Of a stretch of 64,000 nt of DNA, positions 733 to 35,806 are shown in pieces. Position 1 is the stretch's first letter. Each line of letters opens with the position of its first letter. This DNA comes from a phage: assembly GCA_016390365.1 (NCBI GenBank), contig GCA_016390365.1_3043.1. One strand, given 5' to 3'. The notes under the pieces are model-generated. The model made no database searches. It was given only the letters and a program-made list of their open reading frames with translations, and had not been told where the DNA came from. The translations under genes were made by a program, and so were the position numbers.

Positions 733-1263
<531 letters not shown>

Positions 1264-1264
1264 A

Positions 1265-1300
1265 GTTGTTTACTTTCTCCTAGAATTGTGATAGTATATT
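1265..1300 (+). promoter_or_regulatory. early promoter (GTTTAC -35, 17-bp spacer, TGn-extended -10) for denV
   Basis: gtttac at 1268-1273; tgtgatagtat -10 region; SD ggaggg before ATG 1323. Confidence 0.5.
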
Positions 1301-1322
1301 CACAGTTAATTGGAGGGATAAA

Positions 1323-1739
1323 ATGACTCGTATTAATTTGACTTTAGTATCTGAACTTGCTGATCAACATTTAATCGCAGAATACCGTGAATTGCCACGT
1401 GTTTTTGGTATAGTTCGTAAACACGTGGCAAATGGTAAACGGGTTAAAGATTTTAAAATATCTTCCGAGTTTATTTTAGGTTCTGGTCATGTCACGTTCT
1501 TTTACGATAAGTTAGAATTTTTGCGAAAGCGTCAATCAGACATTATAACGGAATGCTTAAAACGTGGGTTTAGTATAAAAGATACTGAAGTTCCTGACAT
1601 CAGCGATATTCCAGCAGAATGGAAAAATGATTATAACCCATGCAAATCGGCTATTAAATTGAGTCAACAACGACTCGATGAAAAAATTTTAATGAAGCCA
1701 CACTGGTATAAATACTACGGCAAAAATATTTACATTTAA
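1323..1739 (+). CDS. denV: endonuclease V, pyrimidine-dimer DNA glycosylase
   Basis: 138 aa [17 protein letters not shown]..., matches recalled T4 DenV. Confidence 0.95.
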
Positions 1740-1748
1740 AGGAAACAC

Positions 1749-2222
1749 ATGAAAACATATCAAGAATTTATCACTGAAGCAGCTATTAATTCTCAAATTA
1801 TTGCTGAATCTTTTACTGATCTTTTGAAATTTAAAAAAGGTCAAAAAATCACTGCTGTATTAGATGATGGTACAGAAGTTGAGATGGATGTACAGGGATA
1901 TAATTATGCAGTAGATGGAAAACTGTATAATAAATCTCATGCTAAATTTGATTCATTTGACGATTTTGTTAATACAGTTGAAGATGAAAAAACTCGTAGA
2001 TCCATTGCAACTGGCGACGCTAAGGTTCTTATGGCACACGGTCATGAACGTATCCGCGCCAAACAGAATAAAATGGGCGAAGATAATTTTGCATTAGTTG
2101 GTTATCAATCTGGTAAACAAACTTATGGTTATCAGCGTACTGCTACCATGTATAATAAAAATGGTAAAATCGCTTTCGTGAATAGCAAAGGCTCTATTCA
2201 GTACGTCAAATCATTCAAATAA
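1749..2222 (+). CDS. internal head protein, IPII/IPIII-like, with capsid targeting sequence
   Basis: N-terminus MKTYQEFITEA matches the T4 internal-protein CTS (MKTYQEFIAE, cleaved after E by prohead protease); body differs from T4 IPs. Confidence 0.7.
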   Translation: MKTYQEFITEAAINSQIIAESFTDLLKFKKGQKITAVLDDGTEVEMDVQGYNYAVDGKLYNKSHAKFDSFDDFVNTVEDEKTRRSIATGDAKVLMAHGHERIRAKQNKMGEDNFALVGYQSGKQTYGYQRTATMYNKNGKIAFVNSKGSIQYVKSFK

Positions 2223-2375
2223 GCAAATAAGAAATATGGGAACAACCTGGACCTCATGATTCTATGAGGGATTCCCGCCAACCTGTAATAAGGTCGAGCC
2301 CAAGTGCGGTAATGGGTAAATACAGAAATGGACAATTCATGCGCCACGGAATGGCCCAAATTTAGAGAGAATAAA

Positions 2376-2915: not shown

Positions 2916-3241
2916 TGACAGACACACAGCTTTTCGAATATCTTTATTTTTCGCCAAAAACTATTAAAAATAAATTGGTGAATCATTTTGAAATTTTGGC
3001 AAATAACAACGTCTTGAGCGAATTTTATCCTAAGCAATACAAATTACAAAAAGGTGTATTCAAAGGATGCAGAGTTTTGTGTACTGCTCCTAATGCAAGA
3101 TTAATGAATAAAATTCCATATTTTACCATGGAATTTATTGATGGACCTTTTAAAGGACTAATCACCCAAAGTTTAATGGCATATGATTCTGAGCCATTTT
3201 TAATTAAAGAACAATCTTGGATAAATTTATTTTCTAATTGA
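2912..3241 (+). CDS. hypothetical protein
   Basis: ORF starting MMTDTQLFEY; ATGATG overlaps upstream stop codon. Confidence 0.45.
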   Translation: MMTDTQLFEYLYFSPKTIKNKLVNHFEILANNNVLSEFYPKQYKLQKGVFKGCRVLCTAPNARLMNKIPYFTMEFIDGPFKGLITQSLMAYDSEPFLIKEQSWINLFSN

Positions 3242-3247
3242 GGTTAT

Positions 3248-3610
3248 ATGAAAGCATATCAAATTCTTGAAGGCACACATAAAGGTACTATTTATTTTGA
3301 AGATGGTATTCAAGCACGAATTATTGTTTCTAAAACCTTTAAAGAGGACTCTTTTGTAGACCCAGAAATTTTCTACGGTTTGCATGCCCGTGAAATTGAA
3401 ATTGAGCCACAGCCTACAGTTAAAATTGAAGGTGGTCAACACCTGAACGTTAACGTTCTGCGTCGTGAAACTTTGGAAGATGCAGTTAAGCATCCGGAAA
3501 AATATCCGCAGCTGACCATCCGTGTATCAGGTTATGCAGTTCGTTTTAACTCTCTGACTCCGGAACAGCAGCGCGACGTTATCGCTCGTACCTTTACTGA
3601 GAGTCTGTAA
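3248..3610 (+). CDS. autonomous glycyl radical cofactor, GrcA/YfiD-like
   Basis: C-terminal [29 protein letters not shown] glycyl-radical motif; 3' half GC-rich with E. coli-like codons. Confidence 0.8.
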
Positions 3611-3831
3611 TGGCAAAGATAATTATTGAAGGTTCTAAAGATGTGCTAAATGCTTTCGCAGAATGGTTTAGTAATTCAGGCGAACAGCAATTTAATGAAG
3701 CGTGGAATATGGGTGATATTAGTGGAATTTATCCTACGACAGAAATTTCTGTTCAGGGATATGGCATTCATGAACCTATTCGTTTAGTTGAATATGATTT
3801 GGGAACGGGCGAGGAAGTCAAATATGATTGA
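3610..3831 (+). CDS. hypothetical protein
   Basis: 73-codon ORF, TAATG coupling to upstream gene. Confidence 0.5.
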   Translation: MAKIIIEGSKDVLNAFAEWFSNSGEQQFNEAWNMGDISGIYPTTEISVQGYGIHEPIRLVEYDLGTGEEVKYD

Positions 3832-7000: not shown

Positions 7001-7582
7001 ATGGCGAGTTTAATTTTTACTTACGCAGCAATGAATGCTGGAAAATCTGCTTCTCTTTTGACTGCTGCACATAATTATAAAGAACGCGGAATGGGTGTAT
7101 TAGTTCTTAAGCCTGCTATTGATACTCGTGATTCTGTCTGTGAAGTCGTTTCTCGCATTGGAATTAAGCAGGAAGCGAATATTATTACGGATGATATGGA
7201 TATTTTTGAGTTCTATAAATGGGCTGAAGCACAAAAAGATATTCATTGTGTATTTGTAGATGAAGCTCAGTTTTTAAAAACTGAACAGGTGCATCAATTA
7301 AGTCGAATTGTTGATACATATAATGTTCCTGTTATGGCTTATGGGCTAAGGACTGATTTCGCTGGAAAATTATTTGAAGGTTCTAAAGAACTTTTGGCGA
7401 TTGCAGATAAACTTATTGAACTAAAGGCAGTTTGTCATTGTGGTAAAAAGGCTATTATGACAGCTCGATTAATGGAAGATGGAACACCGGTTAAAGAAGG
7501 TAATCAAATCTGTATTGGTGATGAAATTTATGTTTCTTTGTGTAGAAAACATTGGAATGAATTAACTAAAAAGCTCGGTTAG
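7001..7582 (+). CDS. tk: thymidine kinase
   Basis: 193 aa; P-loop AAMNAGKSASLL; zinc ribbon CHCGKK...C...C; matches recalled T4 Tk. Confidence 0.95.
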   Translation: MASLIFTYAAMNAGKSASLLTAAHNYKERGMGVLVLKPAIDTRDSVCEVVSRIGIKQEANIITDDMDIFEFYKWAEAQKDIHCVFVDEAQFLKTEQVHQLSRIVDTYNVPVMAYGLRTDFAGKLFEGSKELLAIADKLIELKAVCHCGKKAIMTARLMEDGTPVKEGNQICIGDEIYVSLCRKHWNELTKKLG

Positions 7583-20831: not shown

Positions 20832-21305
20832 ATGTTATTGACTGGCAAATTATATAAAGAAGAAAAACAGAAATTTTATGATGCACAAAACGGTAAATGT
20901 TTAATTTGCCAACGAGAACTAAATCCTGATGTTCAAGCTAATCATCTTGATCATGACCATGAATTAAATGGACCAAAAGCAGGAAAGGTACGTGGATTGC
21001 TTTGTAATCTCTGCAATGCTGCAGAAGGTCAAATGAAGCATAAATTTAATCGTTCTGGATTAAAGGGACAAGGTGTTGATTATCTTGAATGGTTAGAAAA
21101 TTTACTTACTTATTTAAAATCCGATTACACCCAAAATAATATTCACCCTAACTTTGTTGGAGATAAATCAAAGGAATTTTCTCGTTTAGGAAAAGAGGAA
21201 ATGATGGCCGAGATGCTTCAAAGAGGATTTGAATATAATGAATCTGACACCAAAACACAGTTAATAGCTTCATTTAAGAAGCAGCTTAGAAAGAGTTTAA
21301 AATGA
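20832..21305 (+). CDS. 49: endonuclease VII (Holliday junction resolvase)
   Basis: 157 aa MLLTGKLYKEEKQKFYDAQNGKCLICQ, matches recalled T4 gp49. Confidence 0.95.
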   Translation: MLLTGKLYKEEKQKFYDAQNGKCLICQRELNPDVQANHLDHDHELNGPKAGKVRGLLCNLCNAAEGQMKHKFNRSGLKGQGVDYLEWLENLLTYLKSDYTQNNIHPNFVGDKSKEFSRLGKEEMMAEMLQRGFEYNESDTKTQLIASFKKQLRKSLK

Positions 21306-23119
21306 CAATTGAAAAAGAAATTGAAGGATTGATTCATAAAACTAATAAAGACCTTTTAAACGAGAATGCTAATAAAGATTCTCGTGTTTTTCCAACTCAA
21401 CGGGACCTTATGGCTGGTATTGTGTCTAAACACATTGCCAAAAATATGGTCCCGTCTTTTATTATGAAAGCGCATGAAAGCGGAATTATTCATTTCCATG
21501 ATATTGATTATTCCCCTGCTCTCCCATTTACTAATTGCTGTTTAGTAGATTTAAAAGGAATGCTTGAAAACGGATTTAAGCTAGGTAATGCGCAGATTGA
21601 AACTCCTAAATCAATTGGCGTTGCTACTGCAATTATGGCGCAAATTACTGCGCAAGTTGCTTCCCATCAATACGGCGGAACGACTTTTGCGAATGTAGAT
21701 AAAGTACTTTCTCCTTATGTTAAACGCACCTATGCAAAACATATTGAGGATGCAGAAAAATGGCAAATCGCTGATGCGTTGAATTATGCTCAATCTAAAA
21801 CAGAAAAAGACGTATACGATGCATTTCAAGCTTATGAATATGAAGTAAACACTCTCTTTAGTTCAAACGGACAAACGCCTTTTGTAACAATTACATTTGG
21901 TACGGGAACTGACTGGACTGAACGAATGATTCAGAAAGCAATTCTGAAAAATCGTATTAAAGGTCTTGGTCGTGATGGGATAACTCCTATTTTCCCTAAG
22001 CTTGTTATGTTTGTTGAAGAAGGTGTTAATCTTTATAAAGACGATCCGAACTATGATATTAAGCAGCTTGCTCTAGAGTGCGCAAGCAAAAGAATGTATC
22101 CTGATATTATTTCAGCTAAGAACAATAAAGCTATCACCGGTTCATCTATTCCTGTTTCTCCGATGGGTTGCCGTAGTTTCTTGAGCGTATGGAAAGATTC
22201 GACTGGTAATGAAATTCTTGATGGACGTAATAATCTTGGTGTTGTAACACTGAATCTTCCTCGTATCGCATTAGATTCTTATATTGGAACACAGTTCAAT
22301 GAACAGAAATTTATCGAATTGTTCAATGAGCGAATGGATTTATGTTTTGAAGCTTTGATGTGTAGAATTAGTTCATTAAAAGGAGTTAAAGCGACTGTTG
22401 CTCCTATTCTTTACCAAGAAGGTGCATTCGGGGTTCGTCTTAAACCTGATGACGACATAATTGAGTTATTTAAAAACGGTAGAAGTTCAGTGTCCCTAGG
22501 ATACATTGGTATTCACGAATTGAATATTCTTGTCGGTCGTGATATTGGACAGGAAATTTTAACTAAAATGAATGCTCGTCTTAAACAGTGGACTGAAAGA
22601 ACCGGTTTTGCTTTTAGCTTGTATTCTACTCCCGCTGAAAACCTTTGTTATCGCTTCTGTAAACTTGATACTGAAAAATATGGAAGTGTAAAAGATGTTA
22701 CTGATAAAGGCTGGTACACTAATAGTTTCCATGTTTCAGTAGAAGAAAATATTACTCCGTTTGAAAAGATTTCTCGCGAAGCCCCATATCATTTCATTGC
22801 GACAGGTGGTCACATTTCTTATGTTGAACTTCCTGATATGAAAAATAACCTAAAAGGTCTTGAGGCTGTCTGGGATTATGCTGCACAACATTTAGATTAT
22901 TTTGGTGTTAATATGCCAGTAGATAAATGTTTTACATGTGGAAGTACCCATGAAATGACTCCTACTGAAAACGGATTTGTTTGTTCTATTTGTGGAGAAA
23001 CTGATCCTAAAAAGATGAACACAATAAGAAGAACATGTGGTTATTTGGGAAATCCGAACGAACGCGGATTTAATCTCGGCAAAAATAAAGAAATCATGCA
23101 TAGGGTTAAGCATCAATGA
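21302..23119 (+). CDS. nrdD: anaerobic ribonucleoside-triphosphate reductase NrdD
   Basis: 605 aa continuous ORF; C-terminal zinc site CFTCGSTHE...CSICG and glycyl-radical region RRTCGYLG. Confidence 0.95.
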   Translation: MTIEKEIEGLIHKTNKDLLNENANKDSRVFPTQRDLMAGIVSKHIAKNMVPSFIMKAHESGIIHFHDIDYSPALPFTNCCLVDLKGMLENGFKLGNAQIETPKSIGVATAIMAQITAQVASHQYGGTTFANVDKVLSPYVKRTYAKHIEDAEKWQIADALNYAQSKTEKDVYDAFQAYEYEVNTLFSSNGQTPFVTITFGTGTDWTERMIQKAILKNRIKGLGRDGITPIFPKLVMFVEEGVNLYKDDPNYDIKQLALECASKRMYPDIISAKNNKAITGSSIPVSPMGCRSFLSVWKDSTGNEILDGRNNLGVVTLNLPRIALDSYIGTQFNEQKFIELFNERMDLCFEALMCRISSLKGVKATVAPILYQEGAFGVRLKPDDDIIELFKNGRSSVSLGYIGIHELNILVGRDIGQEILTKMNARLKQWTERTGFAFSLYSTPAENLCYRFCKLDTEKYGSVKDVTDKGWYTNSFHVSVEENITPFEKISREAPYHFIATGGHISYVELPDMKNNLKGLEAVWDYAAQHLDYFGVNMPVDKCFTCGSTHEMTPTENGFVCSICGETDPKKMNTIRRTCGYLGNPNERGFNLGKNKEIMHRVKHQ

Positions 23120-23586
23120 ATTATGACAGAATATACCCGTGCTGCTTCGTGAATGGCCCTGGATGCAGGACCGTTCTTTTCGTTACAGGTTGTTTGCATA
23201 AATGCGAAGGGTGTTATAATAAATCAACATGGAATGCTAGAAATGGTATTCCATTTACTGGTGAAACACTAGAACAATTAATTGAATGTTTGAATAATGA
23301 TTATATAGAAGGATTAACTATAACTGGAGGAGACCCTCTTTATCCTGATAACAGAGACGTGATTCATTGCATTGTTCAAACAGTAAAAAATCTTTATCCC
23401 AATAAAAGCATTTGGTTGTGGACAGGATATAAATTTGAAGATATTAAACAACTAGAAATGCTTAAATATGTTGATGTTATTATTGATGGGAAGTATGAGA
23501 AAAATCTTCCGACTAAAAAGCTGTGGCGAGGATCAGATAATCAGCGGCTTTGGTCAAATACCGATGGGGTGTGGAAACATGATTAA
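23116..23586 (+). CDS. nrdG: anaerobic RNR activating enzyme NrdG (radical SAM)
   Basis: 156 aa with Cys cluster CRTVLFVTGCLHKCEGC. Confidence 0.9.
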   Translation: MNYDRIYPCCFVNGPGCRTVLFVTGCLHKCEGCYNKSTWNARNGIPFTGETLEQLIECLNNDYIEGLTITGGDPLYPDNRDVIHCIVQTVKNLYPNKSIWLWTGYKFEDIKQLEMLKYVDVIIDGKYEKNLPTKKLWRGSDNQRLWSNTDGVWKHD

Positions 23587-24867: not shown

Positions 24868-25153
24868 AACGTATCGTCGTAAAGACTTGAAAGTTCGTGA
24901 TTATGACTATTTCGGAAAGCGTAAAGCTCCTGATGGGGTAAGTCATAAAGATATGGTTGAAAACATTTTTCGTTCAGATAAATGGCGACGTATGCGAGGT
25001 GTTGATTCAGAGGTTAAGAATGAATTGAATCGTCAACTGCGTGGTGAAGTAAGAAAGTTGAAAAAATCAGTTTACATTGACGATGATTTTGATTATAATA
25101 CATCTCAACGAGTTGCTAAGCGCAAATCAAACGAGTGTTATCGTTACAGCTGA
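24860..25153 (+). CDS. hypothetical basic protein
   Basis: start ATG 24860; Arg/Lys-rich. Confidence 0.45.
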   Translation: MGKTYRRKDLKVRDYDYFGKRKAPDGVSHKDMVENIFRSDKWRRMRGVDSEVKNELNRQLRGEVRKLKKSVYIDDDFDYNTSQRVAKRKSNECYRYS

Positions 25154-25160
25154 GGAAAAT

Positions 25161-25292
25161 ATGAATATCAAACGAATGCTTTTTAAGCAGGGGTTATACA
25201 CTTTAAATGTTACTCCAAAAGGCGATACAACTAAGTGGTCAGTAAATGACTGGATTAAATTCATTGATGAAAATGGTAATTGGGAAATTTAA
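25161..25292 (+). CDS. hypothetical small protein
   Basis: 43-aa ORF after SD gaggaaa. Confidence 0.3.
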   Translation: MNIKRMLFKQGLYTLNVTPKGDTTKWSVNDWIKFIDENGNWEI

Positions 25293-25493
25293 ATGAATCC
25301 TGAATCTAAATTATCGCAGCGAATTGCTGAAGAACGCGCCAAATTTTTCCAGAACATGAAACACAATGGTATTGAGGATGAAGTTTTTCTAAATTGGTTC
25401 TGGAATAATAAGTATGCAGCATGCGAAGGAGCTTTGTCATTGTCAGTCGCAATGATGTATGAAGGCTGGAAGGGTGCCAAAAAGTTTAGCTAA
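25293..25493 (+). CDS. hypothetical protein
   Basis: 66-codon ORF followed by terminator. Confidence 0.4.
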   Translation: MNPESKLSQRIAEERAKFFQNMKHNGIEDEVFLNWFWNNKYAACEGALSLSVAMMYEGWKGAKKFS

Positions 25494-25512
25494 GGGCTTC
25501 GGCCCCTTTTTT
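25493..25512 (+). terminator. rho-independent terminator, UUCG tetraloop
   Basis: gggc-ttcg-gccc followed by T7. Confidence 0.6.
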
Positions 25513-25547
25513 GGATAATAAAATTTTAACGTAATTGAGGATAATGT

Positions 25548-25874
25548 ATGACTATTCAAATTAAAAACGCCATTAATTCTTACGCATATGATAAAGTAGT
25601 TTCTTTGCTAGAAAAAGGCGATATTGTAACTCCTCAAATTTTGGATAAATGGGAAAAAGAGCTTCATCAGACGATGAAACAGAATGATCAGAAGATTGGA
25701 CGCAATACTGTCCGTGAATTGTTAGTTCAATATATCTTGTCAGAATTTGATGTTAAAGCTTTTGGCGTAGAATCTAAAGCTTATCAAAAACATGAAATTT
25801 CCGATAAAACTATTCGTCGCATGAAAAATCAACGCAAGAAAAAATTTGCAGACCTGAAAATTACTAAGGTATGA
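25548..25874 (+). CDS. hypothetical protein
   Basis: 108-codon ORF after SD gagga. Confidence 0.45.
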   Translation: MTIQIKNAINSYAYDKVVSLLEKGDIVTPQILDKWEKELHQTMKQNDQKIGRNTVRELLVQYILSEFDVKAFGVESKAYQKHEISDKTIRRMKNQRKKKFADLKITKV

Positions 25875-26092
25875 ATATGAACGAAGCTCTTATTAACGAT
25901 TTACGTCTTGCCGGATATGAAGTAAATACAAACGGCAATGGTTTAACTCAAATTGAAGGAAATGGATTCATCATTGAGTATGAATTTAGCCAATGGTGGT
26001 TATATGCCAATTACGGCGAATTGATTGAATATGTTGACCAATTTGATTCACTAGATGCAGCTCTTGGAGCGGCTAAGTTGATGAATGTATGA
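25871..26092 (+). CDS. hypothetical protein
   Basis: 73-codon ORF, ATGA coupling. Confidence 0.45.
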   Translation: MNMNEALINDLRLAGYEVNTNGNGLTQIEGNGFIIEYEFSQWWLYANYGELIEYVDQFDSLDAALGAAKLMNV

Positions 26093-26358
26093 AATTTATT
26101 AATATTTCTATTACTATTGAAAATTATGGCATTTTCTATGTTGACCAATACATGAAAATTTCATTTTTCCCAAATAAGACTGGTGTTGGATATTGGGAAA
26201 GTCATGTTTCTGAATTAAATGAAAGTGAATATGTTAGCACACATGAAAAGTTTTTAGACTTTTTATATCATGCTGATTTAACTAGTCATTATATAGATAT
26301 TCATGAATTTAAAAAGATGATGGAGAAAGTGTTCCAAGCATACTGTTTACTTAGATAA
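26089..26358 (+). CDS. hypothetical protein
   Basis: 89-codon ORF, ATGA coupling. Confidence 0.4.
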   Translation: MKFINISITIENYGIFYVDQYMKISFFPNKTGVGYWESHVSELNESEYVSTHEKFLDFLYHADLTSHYIDIHEFKKMMEKVFQAYCLLR

Positions 26359-26371
26359 CCGATATCCTCTG

Positions 26372-26400
26372 TGCTTTAAGATAGATCTTCAAATATTATG
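26372..26400 (+). promoter_or_regulatory. candidate MotA-box middle promoter upstream of gene 55
   Basis: TGCTTTA at 26372-26378 followed by AT-rich -10 candidates; spacing not ideal. Confidence 0.4.
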
Positions 26401-26436
26401 ATATAATAGATCTATGAATTGAGCTAAGAGGTGAAA

Positions 26437-26994
26437 ATGTCAGAAACTAAGCCTAAATATAATTACGTAAACAATAAAGAGCTTTTACAAGCTATTATTG
26501 ATTGGAAAACAGAATTAGCAAATAATAAAGACCCAAATAAAGTAGTTCGTCAGAATGATACTATCGGATTAGCCATTATGCTTATTGCAGAAGGCTTATC
26601 TAAGCGTTTCAACTTTTCAGGATACACCCAGTCTTGGAAACAAGAAATGATTGCAGATGGTATAGAAGCTTCTATTAAGGGGCTTCACAATTTTGATGAA
26701 ACGAAATATAAAAACCCACATGCATATATAACTCAAGCTTGTTTTAATGCATTCGTCCAACGTATTAAAAAAGAACGTAAGGAAGTTGCAAAGAAATATA
26801 GTTACTTCGTTCACAATGTCTATGACAGTCGTGACGACGATATGGTTGCGTTAGTAGATGAAACTTTTATTCAAGACATCTACGATAAAATGACGCATTA
26901 CGAAGAATCAACCTATAGAACACCGGGGGCTGAAAAGAAAAGTGTTGTAGACGATTCTCCTAGTTTGGATTTTTTATATGAGGCTAACGATTAA
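26437..26994 (+). CDS. 55: late sigma factor gp55
   Basis: 185 aa [24 protein letters not shown] matches recalled T4 gp55; track start 26431 is GTG. Confidence 0.95.
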
Positions 26995-27196
26995 CCTCTC
27001 CGGATTCTTGGAAGAAATACCTGAAGTTGAAGCTATTCCCTATTTACTTAAAATGTATCTCAGGGAAGTTTTAGCTCTTGACATTGATATTGATCCAGAA
27101 AATCCGTACGATACCGCTTTTAAATCTAATGGTGTAGAATTAAATTACAGGTATCATTTAACAGATGATGATTTTTATTTTATATTAGAGAAATAA
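26978..27196 (+). CDS. hypothetical protein
   Basis: 72-codon ORF overlapping 55 stop. Confidence 0.4.
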
Positions 27197-27197
27197 T

Positions 27198-27515
27198 ATG
27201 ACTGATAAACCCGAAATTAATGATGAAGTGGAAAAGCTTATTTCTTCTATTGAAGAAAAGAACCGTCTTGAAGCAGAAAGAAAAGCAAATAAGTTATTGT
27301 CTAAAAACAAACGCGAACTGAATCGTCTTTATAAGCACGCTCAGATCGCAGCTGAAAATAATAATTTTGCTCAATACGAATATGCTATCAAGAAAAGTCG
27401 GGATATTCTAAAACAGCCATATAACGATGAACTTATCAGTATTCTTTGGAAGACTACTAGATCGCAAATTGAGGATATGATTGATGCTTACACACGTAAA
27501 ATTCAAGCGTCTTAA
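27198..27515 (+). CDS. hypothetical protein
   Basis: 105-codon ORF. Confidence 0.45.
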   Translation: MTDKPEINDEVEKLISSIEEKNRLEAERKANKLLSKNKRELNRLYKHAQIAAENNNFAQYEYAIKKSRDILKQPYNDELISILWKTTRSQIEDMIDAYTRKIQAS

Positions 27516-27687
27516 AATTAATGCAGGATTTACTGAATCTTTGAATGGTCATCTTTGTGTGAAAATTTCTGAAAAAGAATACCATGATAGTTCAATTAAA
27601 GAAGTTAATCCTCCTATTGTAAGAGCAGACCCTAATATGAAAGTGTGGGTTGATTCTTATCAAGTTAAAAAATGGTGGCAGTTATGA
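27481..27687 (+). CDS. hypothetical protein
   Basis: 68-codon ORF; start uncertain. Confidence 0.35.
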   Translation: MMLTHVKFKRLKINAGFTESLNGHLCVKISEKEYHDSSIKEVNPPIVRADPNMKVWVDSYQVKKWWQL

Positions 27688-27692
27688 AAGAT

Positions 27693-27866
27693 GAACATCC
27701 AGACTTCTGAAATAGATTATAATAAAATTCGTTCCTCTAAAGAGGAAATGATGAGACGCTTTAAAGAGTCTCATGATAAAGCTAAAGCAGAAGGAACTAT
27801 AACATATAAGCGCATAAAATTTAAAAGTTCTAATGAGCCTCTGTATGGCGTATTATGTGGATAGGA
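27693..27866 (+). CDS. hypothetical small protein
   Basis: 57-aa ORF MNIQTSEIDYNKIRSSKEE, not in track. Confidence 0.3.
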
Positions 27867-27888
27867 GCTTCGGCTCCTATATTGCTTT
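27862..27888 (+). terminator. hairpin terminator, UUCG tetraloop
   Basis: taggagc-ttcg-gctccta. Confidence 0.55.
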
Positions 27889-27906
27889 ATAAATTTTTGG
27901 TAAAAT
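27883..27906 (+). promoter_or_regulatory. candidate MotA-box middle promoter for a-gt
   Basis: TGCTTTA 27883-27889, 11-nt gap, TAAAAT. Confidence 0.4.
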
Positions 27907-27930
27907 AAACCAAAACAAAGAGGATATTAA

Positions 27931-29133
27931 ATGAAAGTATGTATTTTTATGGCTCGAGGTCTTGAAGGTTGTGGTGTAACAAAATTCTCACTCGAGCAAC
28001 GTGATTGGTTTATTAAAAATGGTCATGAAGTGACTTTGGTTTATGCTAAAGATAAATCATTTACTCGTAATTGCGCGCATGATTATAAATCATTTTCAAT
28101 TCCGGTTTTATTGGCAAAAGAATATGATAAAACACTTAAGCTGGTAAATGATTGTGATATTCTAATTATCAATTCAGTTCCTGCTACTTCGGTTGAAGAA
28201 GACACGATTAATAACTATAAAAAAATTATTGATAACATTAAACCTTCTGTTCGTGTTGTAGTTTATCAACATGACCATTCTTCTCTTTCTTTGCGTCGAA
28301 ATTTGGGATTAGAAGAAACTGTTCGTCGAGCTGATGTTATTTTTAGCCATTCTGATAATGGTGATTTTAATAAAGTTCTGATGAAAGAATGGTATCCTGA
28401 AACAGTTTCTCTGTTTGATGATATTGAAGAAGCACCGACAGTATATAACTTTCAGCCTCCTATGGATATTGCGAAGGTTCGGTCAACCTACTGGAAAGAT
28501 GTTTCTGAAATTAACATGAATATCAACCGTTGGATTGGTCGTACGACCACATGGAAAGGTTTTTATCAGATGTTTGATTTTCATGAAAAACATCTTAAAC
28601 CTGCAGGACTAAGTACTATTATGGAAGGTCTGGAACGTTCTCCAGCGTTCATTCCTATTAAAGAAAAAGGAATTCCATACGAGTATTATCGTCTTCATCA
28701 AGTAGACCAAATTAAAATTGCTCCTAATTTGCCAACGCAAATTCTTGACCGTTATGTAAATAGCGAAATGCTTGAACGTATGAGTAAATCCGGTTTTGGT
28801 TATCAGTTGAGTAAGTTGGATAAAAAATATCTACAACGTTCTTTAGAATATACTCATCTCGAGCTTGGTGCATGTGGAACAATTCCGGTATTTTGGAAAT
28901 CTACTGGCGAAAATTTAAAATTCCGTGTTGATAATACTCCTTTGACCTCGCATGATAGCGGTATCATTTGGTTTGATGAAAATGACATGGAATCAACATT
29001 TGAACGTATTAAAGAACTGTCATCTGACCGAACTCTTTATGACCGCGAACGCGAAAAAGCTTATGAATTTTTGTATCAGCATCAAGATTCAAGCTTCTGC
29101 TTTAAAGAACAGTTTGACATTATTACAAAATAA
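27931..29133 (+). CDS. agt: DNA alpha-glucosyltransferase
   Basis: 400 aa; N-terminus ICIFMARGLEGCGVTKFSLEQRDWFIKNGHEV matches recalled T4 alpha-gt. Confidence 0.9.
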   Translation: MKVCIFMARGLEGCGVTKFSLEQRDWFIKNGHEVTLVYAKDKSFTRNCAHDYKSFSIPVLLAKEYDKTLKLVNDCDILIINSVPATSVEEDTINNYKKIIDNIKPSVRVVVYQHDHSSLSLRRNLGLEETVRRADVIFSHSDNGDFNKVLMKEWYPETVSLFDDIEEAPTVYNFQPPMDIAKVRSTYWKDVSEINMNINRWIGRTTTWKGFYQMFDFHEKHLKPAGLSTIMEGLERSPAFIPIKEKGIPYEYYRLHQVDQIKIAPNLPTQILDRYVNSEMLERMSKSGFGYQLSKLDKKYLQRSLEYTHLELGACGTIPVFWKSTGENLKFRVDNTPLTSHDSGIIWFDENDMESTFERIKELSSDRTLYDREREKAYEFLYQHQDSSFCFKEQFDIITK

Positions 29134-29156
29134 AGGGCTTCGGCCCTTTAGCTTTA
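29133..29156 (+). terminator. hairpin terminator, UUCG tetraloop
   Basis: agggc-ttcg-gccct followed by ttagcttt. Confidence 0.6.
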
Positions 29157-29172
29157 TGCGGAGTTTGATATA

Positions 29173-29313
29173 ATGATATTTCTTGGATATGTGATACTTT
29201 TTCTCGCGTTTTATCTTTTCACTAGAGCGTGTTGGATTGGATTCTTTAGCACTCCAGATGGATTTATTTCAATAATTTTATTTTGCATTTCAATGACGGT
29301 TCTTGATATATGA
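29173..29313 (+). CDS. hypothetical small membrane protein
   Basis: 46-aa hydrophobic ORF MIFLGYVILFLAFYLF..., ATGA coupling to gene 47. Confidence 0.35.
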   Translation: MIFLGYVILFLAFYLFTRACWIGFFSTPDGFISIILFCISMTVLDI

Positions 29314-30329
29314 AAATTTTAAATTTAGGTGATTGGCATTTAGGCGTTAAAGCCGATGATGAGTGGGTTCAATCCATTCAGTTGGATGGAATTAAACAAG
29401 CAATAGAATATTCTAAGAAAAATGGAATTACTACATGGATTCAATACGGCGATATTTTTGATGTGCGAAAAGCAATCACGCATAAAACTATGGAGTTCGC
29501 TCGTGAAATAGTTCAAATGCTTGATGATGCTGGTATTACCCTACATACTGTTGTAGGAAACCATGATATGCACTTTAAAAATACTTTAACTCCAAATGCC
29601 TCTACTGAGCTTTTGGCTAAATATCCTAATGTTAAAGTATATGATAAGCCTACTACAGTAGATTTTGACGGATGTTTAATTGATTTAATTCCTTGGATGT
29701 GTGAAGAAAATACTGGTGAAATTCTTGAACACATCAAAACTTCATCTGCTTCTTTTTGCGTTGGTCACTGGGAACTGAACGGATTTTATTTTTATAAAGG
29801 AATGAAATCTCACGGTCTTGAACCTGATTTCCTTAAGACTTATAAGGAAGTGTGGTCTGGTCACTTCCATACTATCTCTGAGGCTGCTAACGTCAGATAT
29901 ATTGGGACACCATGGACACTAACTGCAGGTGACGAGAATGACCCTCGTGGGTTCTGGATGTTTGATACAGAAACAGAACGAATGGAATTTATTCCAAACA
30001 ATACTACCTGGCATCGTAGAATTCATTATCCATTTAAAGGAAAAATTGACTATAAAGATTTTACAAATCTATCAGTACGTGTTATAGTAACTGAGGTAGA
30101 CAAAAATCTGACGAAGTTCGAATCTGAACTAGAGAAAGTTGTGCATTCGTTACGAGTTGTGTCAAAGATTGATAACTCTGTCGAGTCAGATGACAGCGAA
30201 GAGGTTGAAGTTCAATCTCTTCAGACGTTGATGGAAGAATACATTAATGCAATTCCAGACATCACTGATTCTGACCGTGAAGCATTTATTCAATATGCAA
30301 ATCAGTTATATGTAGAGGCAACACAATGA
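29310..30329 (+). CDS. 47: recombination nuclease subunit gp47 (Mre11-like)
   Basis: 339 aa; phosphoesterase motifs GDWHLG, GNHD, GHWE, GHFH. Confidence 0.95.
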   Translation: MKILNLGDWHLGVKADDEWVQSIQLDGIKQAIEYSKKNGITTWIQYGDIFDVRKAITHKTMEFAREIVQMLDDAGITLHTVVGNHDMHFKNTLTPNASTELLAKYPNVKVYDKPTTVDFDGCLIDLIPWMCEENTGEILEHIKTSSASFCVGHWELNGFYFYKGMKSHGLEPDFLKTYKEVWSGHFHTISEAANVRYIGTPWTLTAGDENDPRGFWMFDTETERMEFIPNNTTWHRRIHYPFKGKIDYKDFTNLSVRVIVTEVDKNLTKFESELEKVVHSLRVVSKIDNSVESDDSEEVEVQSLQTLMEEYINAIPDITDSDREAFIQYANQLYVEATQ

Positions 30330-30589
30330 CTTTTGATGAATTTAAAAATGTTATGATGAGTCAGCATTTTGAATGCGAAGTAAAAGATGATATTGGGCAT
30401 AAAGAAATTATTGAATATTGGTTTGAACCGCTAGAGGTTGAAGATAATTGTATTAAAAAGGTTACGGTCTGCACTGACTGGGCTGTATCTTTTAACTTCA
30501 ACATTTTAGATAATGACACACCTAAATCATTGCGAGATATGGCCGTATCTTGTATTAAGGATGCATACTGTGAAGTTTTCGACATTTGA
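30326..30589 (+). CDS. hypothetical protein
   Basis: 87-codon ORF, ATGA coupling. Confidence 0.45.
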   Translation: MTFDEFKNVMMSQHFECEVKDDIGHKEIIEYWFEPLEVEDNCIKKVTVCTDWAVSFNFNILDNDTPKSLRDMAVSCIKDAYCEVFDI

Positions 30590-30776
30590 CATTAATGATG
30601 AATTCATAGCAAACATTGATTATACCGAAGAAGATTCTAGATATGTTGGAATAATTTATATTACATCAAAAACAGCACAAGGCGTTGTTTGCATGGCTGA
30701 ATTTGATGAATACTTTTTAGATTATAATGATATGATAGAATGGTCTAAAAGATACATTAAAAGGAATCTTTTGTGA
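30561..30776 (+). CDS. hypothetical protein
   Basis: start uncertain (ATG 30561 or GTG 30570). Confidence 0.4.
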   Translation: MHTVKFSTFDINDEFIANIDYTEEDSRYVGIIYITSKTAQGVVCMAEFDEYFLDYNDMIEWSKRYIKRNLL

Positions 30777-32455
30777 AGAATTTTAAACTAAACCGAGTTA
30801 GGTATCAAAATATAATGTCAGTAGGTGGAAATCCTATTGACATTCAATTAGATAAGGTTCAAAAAACTCTTATTACTGGCCGAAATGGCGGTGGTAAGTC
30901 TACTATGTTAGAAGCCATCACATTTGGGCTTTTTGGCAAGCCATTTCGTGATGTAAAGAAAGGTCAATTAATAAACAGCACAAATAAGAAAGAACTTTTA
31001 GTTGAATTGTGGATGGAATATGATGAGAAAAAGTACTATATCAAAAGAGGACAAAAACCAAACGTTTTCGAAATCACCGTTAACGGTACACGTCTTAATG
31101 AATCTGCCAGCAGTAAAGATTTCCAAGCAGAATTTGAACAGCTTATCGGAATGTCATATGCCAGTTTCAAGCAGATTGTTGTTCTTGGTACAGCAGGGTA
31201 TACCCCTTTCATGGGTTTGTCGACCCCTGCGCGAAGAAAGCTTGTGGAAGACCTGCTTGAGGTAGGAACATTAGCTGAAATGGATAAGCTTAATAAAGCA
31301 CTAATACGTGAATTAAATTCACAAAACCAAGTGCTTGATGTTAAAAAAGATAGTATTATCCAACAAATTAAAATATATAATGATAACGTTGAACGCCAGA
31401 AAAAATTAACGGGTGACAACCTTACTCGTCTTCAAAATATGTATGATGATTTGGCAAAAGAAGCTAGAACGCTAAAATCGGAAATAGAAGAAGCTAATGA
31501 AAGATTAGTTAATATTGTTTTAGATGAAGACCCGACTGATGCATTTAATAAAATCGGTCAAGAAGCATTTTTAATTAAATCAAAAATTGACTCGTATAAT
31601 AAAGTCATTAATATGTATCACGAAGGTGGATTATGTCCAACCTGTTTGTCACAATTAAGTTCCGGTGATAAAGTTGTTTCTAAAATTAAAGATAAAGTTT
31701 CTGAATGCACGCATTCGTTTGAACAGCTTTCAACACATCGTGATAATTTAAAAGTTCTTGTTGATGAATACCGAGATAATATTAAAACCCAGCAGTCGTT
31801 GGCAAATGATATTCGCAATAAAAAGCAATCTCTAATCACGACGGTAGATAAAGCTAAAAAAGTTAAAGCAGCTATAGAAAAAGCATCTTCTGAGTTTATT
31901 GACCATGCTGATGAAATAGCATTGCTTCAAGAAGAACTTGATAAAATTGTTGAGACAAAAACTAATTTAGTAATGGAAAAATACCACCGAGGAATTTTGA
32001 CTGATATGCTCAAAGATTCTGGTATTAAAGGTGCTATTATTAAAAAGTACATTCCATTATTTAATAAGCAGATTAACCATTATCTTAAAATAATGGAAGC
32101 GGATTATGTGTTTACATTAGATGAAGAATTTAATGAGACAATTAAATCTCGTGGTCGTGAAGATTTTAGTTATGCTTCATTTAGTGAAGGTGAAAAGGCA
32201 AGAATTGATATTGCTCTTTTATTTACTTGGCGTGATATTGCTTCTATTGTATCTGGTGTTAGTATTAGTACATTAATACTCGATGAAGTGTTTGATGGGT
32301 CATTTGACGCCGAAGGTATTAAAGGTGTAGCTAATATTATAAATTCAATGAAAAACACTAATGTTTTTATAATTTCGCATAAAGACCATGACCCGCAAGA
32401 ATATGGTCAGCATCTTCAAATGAAGAAAGTTGGTCGATTTACTGTAATGGTTTAA
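30773..32455 (+). CDS. 46: recombination nuclease subunit gp46 (Rad50/SbcC-like ATPase)
   Basis: 560 aa; Walker A GRNGGGKST, zinc hook CPTC, signature motif SFSEGEKARI, D-loop LILDEVFD; GTG start. Confidence 0.95.
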   Translation: MKNFKLNRVRYQNIMSVGGNPIDIQLDKVQKTLITGRNGGGKSTMLEAITFGLFGKPFRDVKKGQLINSTNKKELLVELWMEYDEKKYYIKRGQKPNVFEITVNGTRLNESASSKDFQAEFEQLIGMSYASFKQIVVLGTAGYTPFMGLSTPARRKLVEDLLEVGTLAEMDKLNKALIRELNSQNQVLDVKKDSIIQQIKIYNDNVERQKKLTGDNLTRLQNMYDDLAKEARTLKSEIEEANERLVNIVLDEDPTDAFNKIGQEAFLIKSKIDSYNKVINMYHEGGLCPTCLSQLSSGDKVVSKIKDKVSECTHSFEQLSTHRDNLKVLVDEYRDNIKTQQSLANDIRNKKQSLITTVDKAKKVKAAIEKASSEFIDHADEIALLQEELDKIVETKTNLVMEKYHRGILTDMLKDSGIKGAIIKKYIPLFNKQINHYLKIMEADYVFTLDEEFNETIKSRGREDFSYASFSEGEKARIDIALLFTWRDIASIVSGVSISTLILDEVFDGSFDAEGIKGVANIINSMKNTNVFIISHKDHDPQEYGQHLQMKKVGRFTVMV

Positions 32456-32510
32456 TTTATAAGAGATTATGCTTTAATTTATTAGAGTATAATCTCTATG
32501 GAGGAAAAAC

Positions 32511-32699
32511 ATGGAATATTCAACTGGACAGCATTTATTAACTTTTCCTGAAATAAAACGATATATTCTGAGAAATAATTTTTCTAATGAAGAGCATATA
32601 GTTACTGAATCTATGCTTAGGAATGCATTTAAAGCAGAATATACAAAAATAATGTCCAATAGAAATGAAGCTTGGACTGTTACTGATTATTATGACTAA
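32511..32699 (+). CDS. hypothetical protein
   Basis: 62-codon ORF after SD ggaggaaa. Confidence 0.45.
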   Translation: MEYSTGQHLLTFPEIKRYILRNNFSNEEHIVTESMLRNAFKAEYTKIMSNRNEAWTVTDYYD

Positions 32700-32708
32700 A
32701 GGTGTATT

Positions 32709-33098
32709 ATGACTAAAATTACTGTGAATTATACTGTTGATGTAAAAGATATTCAGCCAAAACACGTGCGTTCTGAATCAAATCCACAAAACCAAAATAA
32801 AATTCGTCGCGCATGGGTTTTGTCTCTTTCTGATAACGCAATGGAAGTTATTCAGAACAAAATTAAATCTGCACCTGCTCGTCATGCGTATTATGAAGCT
32901 ATCGATCGTGAAGTAAGTAATAAATGGATTGAACTAATGCGCAAACATACTACAGAATCCCTAAACGCCGGTGCTAAATTTATTATGACTTCATGCGGTG
33001 AACGTCTTGAAGATGATTATTGCGGTAATGCAGATGAACGTCTAATTGTTGCTGCTCAAATTGTTGCGGAAACAATTGCGGCTGATTTTAATCGTTAA
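32709..33098 (+). CDS. rpbA: RNA polymerase-binding protein RpbA
   Basis: 129 aa; position between 46 and 45; matches recalled T4 RpbA. Confidence 0.8.
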
Positions 33099-33099
33099 T

Positions 33100-33124
33100 T
33101 GCTTTATTAAATTAGTTATAAAAT
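33100..33124 (+). promoter_or_regulatory. candidate MotA-box middle promoter for gene 45
   Basis: TGCTTTA 33100-33106, 12-nt gap, TAAAAT. Confidence 0.4.
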
Positions 33125-33153
33125 TAAATCTCATTTGAATTGAAGGAAATTAC

Positions 33154-33840
33154 ATGAAACTGTCTAAAGATACTACTGCTCTGCTTAAAAATTTCGCTAC
33201 TATTAACTCTGGCATTATGCTTAAATCTGGTCAATTTATTATGACTCGCGCAGTTAATGGTACAACTTATGCGGAAGCAAATATTTCCGACACCATTGAT
33301 TTTGATGTAGCAATTTACGATTTGAACGGTTTTCTCGGTATTCTGTCCCTAGTTAATGACGATGCAGAAATTTCCCAGTCAGAAGATGGAAATATTAAAA
33401 TTGCTGATGCTCGTTCAACAATTTTTTGGCCAGCAGCCGATCCGAGTACAGTAGTTGCTCCTAATAAACCAATTCCATTCCCGGTAGCATCTGTTGTTAC
33501 TGAAATTAAAGCTGAAGACCTTCAACAGCTGTTGCGTGTATCTCGTGGTCTGCAGATTGATACAATTGCTATCACAGTAAAAGAAGGTAAAATCGTAATT
33601 AACGGTTTTAATAAAGTAGAAGATTCTGCTCTTACCCGTGTTAAATATTCTTTGACTCTTGGTGATTATGATGGTGAAAATACATTTAATTTCATTATCA
33701 ATATGGCAAATATGAAAATGCAACCAGGAAATTATAAACTTCTGCTCTGGGCAAAAGGTAAACAAGGTGCTGCTAAATTTGAAGGTGAACACGCGAATTA
33801 TGTAGTAGCTCTTGAAGCTGATTCTACCCACGATTTTTAA
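33154..33840 (+). CDS. 45: sliding clamp gp45
   Basis: 228 aa MKLSKDTTALLKNFATINSGIMLKSGQFIMTRAVNGTTYAEANI. Confidence 0.95.
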   Translation: MKLSKDTTALLKNFATINSGIMLKSGQFIMTRAVNGTTYAEANISDTIDFDVAIYDLNGFLGILSLVNDDAEISQSEDGNIKIADARSTIFWPAADPSTVVAPNKPIPFPVASVVTEIKAEDLQQLLRVSRGLQIDTIAITVKEGKIVINGFNKVEDSALTRVKYSLTLGDYDGENTFNFIINMANMKMQPGNYKLLLWAKGKQGAAKFEGEHANYVVALEADSTHDF

Positions 33841-33842
33841 TA

Positions 33843-33864
33843 GAGGGCTTCGGCCCTTAAATTT
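33843..33864 (+). terminator. hairpin terminator, UUCG tetraloop
   Basis: agggc-ttcg-gccct; weak T-tract. Confidence 0.5.
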
Positions 33865-33889
33865 ACACTAAAACTTGAATGAGGAAATT

Positions 33890-34849
33890 ATGATTACCGT
33901 AAATGAAAAAGAACACATTCTTGAACAGAAATATCGTCCATCTACTATCGATGAATGTATTCTTCCTGCCTTTGATAAAGAAACCTTTAAATCTATTACA
34001 AGTAAAGGTAAGATTCCACATATTATTCTTCATTCTCCTTCTCCAGGAACAGGTAAAACAACTGTAGCAAAAGCATTGTGTCATGATGTAAATGCTGATA
34101 TGATGTTTGTGAATGGTTCAGATTGTAAAATTGATTTCGTTCGTGGTCCTTTGACTAATTTTGCCAGCGCCGCTTCATTTGATGGTCGTCAAAAAGTAAT
34201 CGTTATTGATGAATTTGACCGTTCAGGTTTAGCAGAATCTCAGCGACATCTTCGTTCCTTTATGGAAGCTTATAGTTCAAACTGTAGTATTATTATTACT
34301 GCTAACAATATTGATGGTATTATTAAACCACTTCAGTCACGCTGCCGAGTTATTACGTTCGGTCAACCGACCGATGAAGATAAAATTGAAATGATGAAGC
34401 AGATGATTCGTCGATTGACTGAAATCTGTAAACATGAAGGTATTGCTATAGCTGATATGAAAGTTGTAGCAGCTTTGGTTAAAAAGAATTTTCCTGATTT
34501 TCGTAAAACTATTGGCGAGCTCGATAGTTATTCATCTAAAGGTGTTTTGGATGCTGGTATTTTATCACTGGTTACTAACGATCGTGGTGTTATTGATGAT
34601 GTTCTTGAGTCTCTCAAAAATAAAGATGTTAAACAACTCAGAGCTTTAGCACCAAAATATGCAGCCGATTATTCTTGGTTTGTTGGTAAACTTGCCGAAG
34701 AAATCTATTCACGTGTAACTCCACAGAGCATTATTCGTATGTACGAAATTGTCGGCGAAAATAATCAGTATCATGGTATTGCAGCTAATACTGAATTGCA
34801 TCTAGCTTATCTTTTCATTCAATTAGCATGCGAAATGCAGTGGAAGTGA
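33890..34849 (+). CDS. 44: clamp loader large subunit gp44
   Basis: 319 aa from ATG 33890 ([17 protein letters not shown]); Walker [11 protein letters not shown]. Confidence 0.95.
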
Positions 34850-34850
34850 T

Positions 34851-35414
34851 ATGAGCTTATTTGAAGATGATATTCAATTAAACAAGCATCAAGTTGCTTG
34901 GTATTCAAAAGATTGGACAGCTGTCCAATCCGCTGCTGATTCTTTTAAAGAAAAAGCTGAAAATGAATTTTTTGAAATAATTGGAGCTATTAATAATAAA
35001 ACTAAATGCTCTATTGCTCAAAAAGATTATTCAAAATTCATGGTTGAAAATGCATTATCACAATTTCCAGAGTGCATGCCAGCTGTATATGCTATGAATT
35101 TAATCGGTTCTGGATTAAGTGATGAAGCTCATTTTAATTATCTAATGGCTGCAGTTCCTCGGGGTAAAAGATATGGTAAATGGGCAAAACTAGTTGAAGA
35201 TTCCACCGAAGTATTGATTATTAAGTTACTTGCTAAGCGGTATCAAGTTAATACAAATGATGCAATTAACTATAAATCAATTATTACTAAAAATGGAAAA
35301 CTACCTTTAGTATTAAAAGAACTTAAAGGATTAGTCACGGATGATTTTTTGAAAGAAGTGACTAAGAACGTAAAAGAACAGAAACAGCTCAAAAAACTAG
35401 CATTGGAATGGTAA
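34851..35414 (+). CDS. 62: clamp loader small subunit gp62
   Basis: 187 aa [22 protein letters not shown]. Confidence 0.95.
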
Positions 35415-35415
35415 A

Positions 35416-35784: not shown

Positions 35785-35786
35785 GC

Positions 35787-35806
35787 AAGGGGCTTCGGCC
35801 CCTTAA
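35787..35806 (+). terminator. hairpin, UUCG tetraloop (weak T-tract)
   Basis: aagggg-c-ttcg-g-cccctt. Confidence 0.45.

Follow-up and report, generated by a model that had tools for sequence, protein, structure and literature searches.

The gene vs.6 (product Y06I) was analyzed in a window of 64,000 nucleotides (nt), which is the whole stretch of phage DNA under study (contig GCA_016390365.1_3043.1). It encodes a GrcA-like autonomous glycyl-radical cofactor and is a mosaic, since most of its 3′ half consists of Escherichia coli grcA sequence and the remainder is of phage type. The window is a segment of a Tequatrovirus (T4-type) genome, and its list of open reading frames (ORFs) contains the lysozyme gene e (769..1263), denV (1323..1739) and tk (7001..7582). 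On the nucleotide level, vs.6 is 99.7% identical to the gene of phage ECML-363 and 97.5% identical to T4 vs.6 (NC_000866.4, 63557-63919). The positions of all features are given in Table 1.

Table 1. Features of the vs.6 locus and of the anaerobic ribonucleotide reductase genes in the window (CDS, coding sequence; GC, G+C content as a fraction; aa, amino acids).
Feature	Position	Strand	Details and basis
vs.6 (Y06I) CDS, phage GrcA-like autonomous glycyl-radical cofactor	3248..3610	+	ATG start, 120 aa/codons; ORF list
GAGG Shine-Dalgarno sequence of vs.6	3240..3243	+	Separated from the ATG by 4 nt; shares positions with the vs.7 stop codon (3239-3241); read from the sequence
Phage-type 5′ half of vs.6 (CDS 1-178), AT-rich	3248..3425	+	GC 0.34, equal to the window average; no nucleotide match in E. 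coli
Host-derived, putative conversion tract, E. coli grcA sequence (CDS 179-351, codons 60-117)	3426..3598	+	171/173 nt identical to E. coli TK3896
RVSGY glycyl-radical motif, aa 92-96	3521..3535	+	Motif scan; alignments to GrcA and PflB 697-759
Phage-type 3′ tail of vs.6 (CDS 352-363)	3599..3610	+	GAG AGT CTG TAA versus GAA AGC CTG TAA in E. coli
vs.5, downstream gene, unrelated to host DNA	3610..3831	+	ORF list; T4 annotation; no Pfam match
nrdD, phage anaerobic ribonucleotide reductase, motif RRTCGYLG	21302..23119	+	Pfam NRDD 572.8 bits, Gly_radical 90.5 bits; motif scan
nrdG, radical-SAM activase of NrdD	23116..23586	+	Pfam Fer4_12 163.4 bits, Radical_SAM 31.6 bits; CX3CX2C motif at 23191

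Mosaic structure of vs.6 and its GrcA-like product

In the alignment of the two loci, near-identity to E. coli grcA begins at TTGAAGGTGG (window position 3426, CDS 179) and ends at the stop codon, and the flanks on either side of vs.6 are unrelated to the E. coli grcA locus. A protein-guided alignment gave 53 identical nucleotides out of 114 (46.5%) for the part encoding aa 22-59 versus 176 out of 180 (97.8%) for aa 61-120 (Fisher p = 3e-26). When the grcA genes of all 5426 complete E. coli genomes were compared, window positions 3426..3610 were 96.8-97.8% identical, and no nucleotide match was found in these genomes for the 5′ half of vs.6. A megablast search of the whole 64 kb against the same genomes returned 3426..3614 as the sole match (grcA and, more weakly, pflB), with no match in 25001..64000.

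The comparison of 15 Tequatrovirus and Mosigvirus genes restricted the host tract proper to CDS 179-351 (173 nt), since the last 12 nt are specific for the phage lineage. The tail reads GAG AGT CTG or TTG in Tequatrovirus and has CTA in Mosigvirus, compared to GAA AGC CTG in E. coli. The first-pass annotation of this DNA had placed the host-like part at about 3425..3610; its 5′ edge was located correctly (3426), but at the 3′ edge the host tract already stops at 3598. Within the tract, two private synonymous T (CDS 226 and 297) distinguish the window from the grcA allele of E. coli TK3896.

Base composition and codon usage change together with the host identity. The GC of the 5′ 180 nt of vs.6 is 0.339, which corresponds to the 46th percentile of the window, and that of the 3′ 183 nt is 0.475, the highest value among 6382 overlapping 183-nt windows in the 64 kb (mean 0.345). 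The GC at third codon positions rises from 0.20 in the 5′ part to 0.40 in the 3′ part. Leucine is encoded by CTG in 5 of 6 cases, proline by CCG in 3 of 3 and isoleucine by ATC in 2 of 2 within the tract, compared to a usage of 8%, 16% and 16%, respectively, in the 47 long ORFs of the window. The host-versus-phage codon score of the tract is higher than that of all 1082 60-codon windows of phage ORFs. A GC-richer 3′ half with E. coli-preferred codons, next to a phage-like 5′ half, had been proposed from the letters of the sequence, and neither a uniform GC profile nor an equal host identity of both halves, which would have spoken against this proposal, was found. Such a break in host identity within a gene, accompanied by a matching shift in composition and codon usage, is characteristic of phage-host intragenic recombination.

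On the protein level, residues 61-120 are identical to residues 68-127 of E. coli GrcA at 60 of 60 positions, including the RVSGY motif, in agreement with the near-identity that had been noted at first sight. Gly95 (3530-3532) aligns with Gly102 of GrcA and, judging from the alignment to PflB 697-759, would be equivalent to Gly734 of PflB. The Pfam family Gly_radical (PF01228) was detected at aa 61-101 with 66.8 bits (cut-off 22.2). GrcA (YfiD; PDB 6owr; TIGR04365; IPR011140), which repairs pyruvate formate-lyase (PFL) after its cleavage by oxygen, is a stand-alone protein of small size (about 14 kDa) whose C-terminal end is formed by a Gly_radical domain with RVSGY, and the 120-aa product of vs.6 has the same layout. 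It is 7 residues shorter and has a phage-specific N-terminus of 59 aa. On the DNA level, codons 60-117 are 98.8% identical to grcA, whereas the N-terminal half appears to be only distantly homologous. The promoter and the 5′ region of host grcA are absent from the phage, so that vs.6 is not under host regulation.

The NCBIfam equivalog TIGR04365 aligned aa 20-120 to profile positions 25-126 with 153.3 bits, below the cut-off of 170 (E. coli GrcA reaches 234), because the N-terminal half of the vs.6 protein is divergent. Nevertheless, this half appears to be GrcA-related: the GrcA structure 6owr matches residues 22-120 (E = 8.6e-42), and BLASTP pairs aa 22-60 with GrcA 28-67, of which 13 of 38 residues are identical over aa 22-59. 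The isolated N-terminal half (aa 1-59) had no Pfam match, and the BLASTP and hidden Markov model alignments reach residues 20-22. The N-terminus MKAYQIL.G.H.GTIY is common to T4-like homologues, and the homologues of T5-like, Aeromonas and jumbo phages share only its first residues or a looser variant of it. The 5′ half thus appears to be a diverged grcA homologue and not foreign DNA, and the simplest history would be an old phage grcA lineage of which the 3′ part was overwritten. Since the 5′ half itself appears homologous to grcA, gene conversion of an old phage homologue is favored over a fusion of unrelated parts. Judged by these alignments, the vs.6 protein would form a phage-specific branch of the GrcA family and would work like GrcA.

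T4 Vs.6/Y06I is the same gene with the same neighbors (vs.7 and vs.5) and the same E. coli-derived tract. The proteins are identical in 119 of 120 aa (R73 in the window, H73 in T4). Differences were found in the private synonymous changes, in the allele at CDS 282 (the E. coli allele 282A in the window, 282C in T4) and in the tail (GAGAGTCTG for the window, GAAAGTTTG for T4).

Donor and age of the tract

The donor of the tract was searched in a panel of grcA genes from 80 species-representative genomes. E. coli reached an identity of 97.8% and Escherichia sp. one of 96.7%, and no other genus exceeded 91.3%. The synonymous divergence (dS) amounted to 0.047 for E. coli compared to 0.48 for Citrobacter, 0.81 for Klebsiella pneumoniae and 1.1 for Salmonella, and 23 of 23 sites that are diagnostic between K. 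pneumoniae and E. coli show the E. coli state. These values point specifically to Escherichia as the donor. The C-terminal glycyl-radical domains of PflB and TdcE have the same fold and motif, and aa 58-120 of the vs.6 protein align to PflB 697-759 (E = 5e-26). However, the DNA of the tract shares only 80% of its nucleotides with pflB and 75% with tdcE, in contrast to 98% with grcA, and therefore grcA and not pflB is the donor. Host grcA is a full-length gene of host composition between ung and eamB, and its divergence follows the host taxonomy (Escherichia, Citrobacter, Klebsiella, Salmonella), which indicates a transfer from host to phage.

Convergent codon optimization or protein constraint as the source of the identity was ruled out by back-translation of the identical peptide. 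The expected nucleotide identity was 0.79 ± 0.02 with phage codon usage and 0.83 ± 0.02 with the usage of host grcA, and the maximum of 20,000 simulations was 0.906, below the 0.988 observed in the tract. The Pseudotevenviruses provide a natural control, as they encode the same 60 aa except for the last residue with a nucleotide identity to E. coli of only 82-83%.

The age of the tract was determined relative to the divergence of Tequatrovirus and Mosigvirus. Between these genera, the 5′ half of vs.6 shows a dS of 0.417 and the tract one of 0.095, the latter being equal to the diversity within the genera (0.08-0.09). Nine fixed differences were found in the 5′ half and none in the tract (p = 0.0035). 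Hence, the tract is much younger than the split of the two genera. The DNA 3′ of the vs.6 stop codon, on the vs.5 side, is only about 70% identical between them. Two phage sequences, L098 with a Tequatrovirus-type and L101 with a Mosigvirus-type 5′ half, both match the allele of E. coli SK1144 in 173 of 173 nt, and the phage tracts are arranged nearly as a star around the E. coli allele, each 0-4 differences away. The proposal of the first-pass annotation, a chimeric gene for which host grcA was recently captured or served in a gene conversion, is thus supported by the Escherichia donor, the exclusion of constraint and the age of the tract.

Tracts in Klebsiella phages and further homologues

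Jiaodaviruses infecting Klebsiella carry a tract of K. pneumoniae grcA which starts at the same 5′ junction (CDS 177-181 in both phage groups). Its identity to K. pneumoniae grcA is 157/158 over CDS 181-338 in phage KPV15 (L121), 131/131 over CDS 181-311 in phage 15882-1 and 158/158 in L204, a metagenomic Jiaodavirus contig of 165.7 kb. In KPV15, 20 of the 23 diagnostic sites have the K. pneumoniae state, and two of the other three are located at the 3′ edge. The donor therefore matches the host taxon in the E. coli phages (23/23) as well as in the Klebsiella phages (20/23 in KPV15, 158/158 in L204). In phage KP179 the GC step from 0.35 to 0.54 is even larger than in the window.

The Jiaodavirus genes of L203, L204 and KP179 are only 1-3 nt apart in the 5′ 180 nt but differ in 11-14 nt within the 158-nt tract (p = 0.014, 0.0002 and 0.008). 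Together with the dS values of Tequatrovirus and Mosigvirus, these counts reveal incongruent histories of the two segments of vs.6 across related phages. The tract of L203 shows states typical of grcA from Raoultella or from Klebsiella oxytoca-like bacteria, and in the Raoultella phage Rp_M21a a patch of Raoultella type lies within a tract of K. pneumoniae type. For the KP179 and L203 tracts, the best matches amounted to 91% identity with K. pneumoniae or K. aerogenes and to 8 differences from a Raoultella metagenome-assembled genome. The grcA record of K. aerogenes NCTC10006 is not directly usable here, as a 1-nt insertion in an A-run truncates the annotated CDS. From these comparisons, at least two independent events took place in the Tevenvirinae, one with an E. 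coli donor (Tequatrovirus and Mosigvirus) and one with a K. pneumoniae donor (Jiaodavirus). Within Jiaodavirus, the sequences argue for at least one further replacement from a donor other than that of the K. pneumoniae tract.

Among all phage records, 639 are at least 95% identical to the 3′ 185 nt of E. coli grcA (best 99.5%), and 106 records of Klebsiella phages are 95-99% identical to the K. pneumoniae tract.

Several side observations were made on these genes. In KPV15 (L121:401-762) a 1-nt deletion shifts the frame in the 5′ half of vs.6, and close relatives keep an intact gene of 363 nt. Klebsiella phage CPRSA (L085:301-665) has a vs.6 gene of 365 nt with a frameshift in the 5′ half, which is annotated as two CDS. 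Either sequencing errors or decaying copies could account for both cases. The plasmid collection contains whole or partial Klebsiella chromosomes labelled as plasmids (L190, CP125156.1, 5.37 Mb; L191, LR134122.1), from which K. pneumoniae grcA was retrieved. In phage T5 (L090:299-688) the annotated CDS of the homologue (320-688) starts inside a tRNA-Met gene (299-374), and the conserved start MKAYQNL follows 23 codons further in, so that the annotated start is probably too far upstream.

The IMG/VR contigs L114-L119, L126 and L130/L132 represent further phage vs.6 lineages with N-termini MKAIQIIDDFSNKRD... For most of them the 3′ part was nearest to grcA of Pasteurellaceae (Haemophilus or Gallibacterium, 79-84% over the full 183 nt) and for L117 to Pantoea; the Pasteurellaceae matches rest on the first host panel, and an expanded panel gave other best hosts. 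In L114-L119 the GC rises from 0.34-0.36 to 0.40-0.45. In these contigs the same process may have acted with other groups of hosts, either longer ago or in lineages of which few members are sampled. In L124 and L176 (IMGVR_UViG_2706794630_000006, 19 kb, filed as viral), a grcA 3′ part with 91.3% identity to Yersinia grcA is combined with a non-phage N-terminus, and this contig is probably bacterial DNA or the flank of a prophage and not a phage vs.6.

Origin of the tract, function and significance

The mosaic probably results from repeated host-templated gene conversion of vs.6 as an old phage grcA homologue. In this process, fragments of host DNA bearing grcA would pair with the homologous part of vs.6 and be copied into the phage genome, so that codons 60-117 would be overwritten with the chromosomal grcA of the infected bacterium as the template. 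The 5′ edge of the tract corresponds to the onset of phage-host homology at a conserved block of 10 residues, and the 3′ edge is a few codons before the stop. A 173-nt E. coli tract in an otherwise phage-type gene would be the outcome, and once it is installed, its approximately 170 nt of perfect homology should ease further conversion. We infer strand invasion and copying from host DNA fragments as the recombination mechanism. T4 recombines efficiently with short cloned homologies, and copying with the phage nucleotide pools would sidestep the problem of unmodified cytosine.

Several points weigh against this explanation. T-even phages degrade the host DNA and carry modified cytosine, and the use of a host template is therefore expected to be rare. 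The recombination mechanism is deduced from the anatomy of the tract. A first conversion would have required an exchange at an identity of only about 78-82%, the state seen in the Karamvirus-like loci L102-105, and only about 12 nt of homology are left 3′ of the tract. The process is not universal: in a search against all phages, none was more than 84% identical to Salmonella grcA. With any sampled host, an identity of only 71-87% was obtained for the homologues of Slopekvirus, Pseudotevenvirus, Karamvirus-like, T5-like, Aeromonas and jumbo phages, whose states would be old or unconverted. No donor of the KP179 and L203 tracts emerged from the sampled hosts, and the isolation hosts of L203-type phages were K. 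pneumoniae or K. variicola. Most phages of Tequatrovirus and Mosigvirus share C at CDS 282 and, in the tail, G at 354 and T at 357. The tract variants 195T, 201T, 219C and 282C also occur as E. coli-like host alleles, but the overlap of polymorphic sites between phages and E. coli (195, 201, 219, 282) is not significant (p = 0.16) and was therefore not taken to indicate several E. coli donors. Within the E. coli phages, a single event with subsequent phage-to-phage spread is a possible alternative to repeated conversion.

A rather unlikely alternative, but the strongest one, is one capture per host group, followed by recombination between co-infecting Tequatroviruses and Mosigviruses without continuing conversion by the host. 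The states shared at 282, 354 and 357 and the non-significant overlap fit this alternative, as do variants that are shared within sub-lineages (195T in several Mosigviruses), which vertical inheritance after a single event predicts. However, the island of low divergence between the fixed differences at CDS 170 and 360 matches the host-homologous tract (179-351) within 9 nt, and an exchange between phages would have no reason to stop at the edge of the tract, as the 5′ halves of the two genera still agree at 82-97%. Furthermore, both 282C and 282A are common alleles of E. coli, the latter being present in the window and in L099. In Jiaodavirus, nearly identical 5′ halves bear tracts of different donors. 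Due to the position of the island and the Jiaodavirus data, repeated conversion is favored.

A single ancient capture in the common ancestor of the phages, with the 3′ half frozen by purifying selection and host-preferred codons, is very improbable. It would explain that, of 15 aligned phages, only T4 (R73H) shows any change in the 60 C-terminal residues (dN about 0), and host grcA is indeed highly conserved within E. coli. Yet it conflicts with the dS of 0.42 in the 5′ half compared to 0.095 in a tract that tolerates private synonymous changes, with other phages that encode the same peptide with 17% different nucleotides, and with Klebsiella phages in which 20 of the 23 diagnostic sites show synonymous states specific for K. 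pneumoniae. An artefact through contamination of the assembly with host reads, or a transfer from phage to E. coli, for neither of which a supporting point was found, has a negligible probability and was rejected, given that the T4 reference genome, hundreds of independently isolated phages and contigs assembled from metagenomes all show the same mosaic, and given the context, taxonomic divergence and composition of host grcA described above.

The unconverted tail may have a separate cause. The TAA stop codon of vs.6 overlaps the ATG of vs.5 (3610-3612), and the GAG equivalent to codon 118 is annotated as the ribosome binding site of the downstream gene (vs.5) in phage KLB25. This role may be the reason why the tail stays phage-like.

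Concerning the function, a passage in PMC8683613 which cites Wagner et al. (2001) describes that YfiD and T4 Y06I receive a glycyl radical from the PFL-activating enzyme, form a complex with oxygen-cleaved PFL and restore its activity. The report mentioned in the first-pass annotation could thus be traced to a source. With one residue different from T4 Y06I and a radical domain identical to that of the host, the protein of the window should act likewise. The host activase PflA would provide its glycyl radical, and the protein would dock onto oxygen-cleaved PFL and restore the activity. The likely role would be to sustain the supply of fermentative acetyl-CoA and ATP in the infected cell, in which expression is shut off, during micro-oxic episodes in the gut.

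Two amino acid differences, LEDAVKH of E. coli type versus LLDAVEH of Klebsiella type, follow the host in Tequatrovirus, Jiaodavirus and Slopekvirus. This suggests selection of the radical domain for a match to PflA and PflB of the current host; neutral conversion driven by homology is a possible alternative to selection. A further proposal is that the tract, instead of being left over from one or two captures, is continually re-copied from the chromosome of the current host in a form of concerted evolution, and kept by the need for a radical domain that fits the local PflA and PflB. It is put forward tentatively and given somewhat less credence than its opposite.

Alternatively, Vs.6 could be a spare part or partner of the phage's own NrdD and NrdG instead of host PflB. 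Both genes, named in the first-pass annotation, were identified in the window by Pfam. In Aeromonas phage Aswh_1 (L091:328-687) the vs.6 homologue lies directly between nrdG and nrdC, and in Serratia phage BF (L094:325-687) one gene upstream of an nrdG-type activase, an arrangement that points to a possible functional connection to the anaerobic reductase system. Nolan et al. (2006) suggested that the gene takes part in nucleotide metabolism. Nevertheless, this partnership is improbable, as the radical domain of vs.6 is of the PFL/GrcA type (RVSGYAV, with the PflB alignment given above) and not of the NrdD type (RRTCGYLG), is kept identical to host GrcA and not to NrdD, and belongs to a protein for which, in the T4 form, the PMC8683613 passage reports the rescue of PFL. 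In T4-type genomes vs.6 is located about 18 kb from nrdD and nrdG, unlike in Aswh_1 and BF.

Sigma-70-like sites near vs.6 were no more common than in shuffled sequence, and no MotA-box middle-promoter pattern was found between window positions 1 and 6053. In the whole window, 15 patterns of the MotA-box type were counted compared to 4.6 expected by chance, none of them upstream of vs.6; one (TGCTTCA, 12 nt, TATAAT) is located at 21214..21239, about 60 nt upstream of nrdD. The order of genes in 769..2330 is e (769..1263), denV (1323..1739), an ORF of 157 aa (1749..2222) and a vs.8-like ORF. In the T4 record, by comparison, denV is immediately preceded by ipII and directly followed by vs.8, so that the internal-protein region is arranged differently in the window.

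The gene, its annotation and the in-vitro rescue of PFL are already known, and the novelty is evolutionary and not functional. No report of a nucleotide-level mosaic or of host-matched tracts was found in the literature searched, and full-text searches (grcA with T4-like; glycyl radical with phage and gene conversion) returned nothing; an earlier mention in Wagner et al. (2001), Miller et al. (2003) or Bowman et al. (2019) is possible. Nolan et al. (2006) mention only a Pfam match for the product of the gene.

The present case resembles that of cyanophages as a host metabolic gene carried by phages, with segments of host-like composition and sequence that imply exchange within the gene. The cyanophage psbA and other photosynthesis genes are reported to have recombined patchwise with the host copies (Zeidner et al., 2005; Sullivan et al., 2006). 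In contrast to psbA, vs.6 belongs to a virulent T-even phage that degrades host DNA, its tract is short (173 nt), and its 5′ junction is fixed at a domain boundary. The 100% identity to extant host alleles (L098, L101) and the host-species-specific replacement in sister genera are further differences. The case is notable for its occurrence in T-even phages, the fixed junction and the complete identity to extant alleles. T4, the best-studied virulent phage, is usually described as sharing essentially no homology with E. coli on the DNA level.

The E. coli tract, the K. pneumoniae tract at the same position and the differing donors within one genus together imply that, in nature, T-even phages repeatedly use host chromosomal DNA as a recombination template, and that they do so at a defined site. 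The tract is a possible sequence marker of the recent host of a phage. If continual re-copying is true, vs.6 would be a natural recorder of the recent host history of T-even phages and would make host-to-phage recombination readily assayable in phages that are regarded as shielded from host DNA by its degradation and by cytosine modification. Work with marked alleles could measure the rate and the genetic requirements of this conversion. The findings also raise the concrete hypothesis that a phage 'spare-part' protein co-adapts with PFL and its activase of the host under the micro-oxic conditions of the gut.

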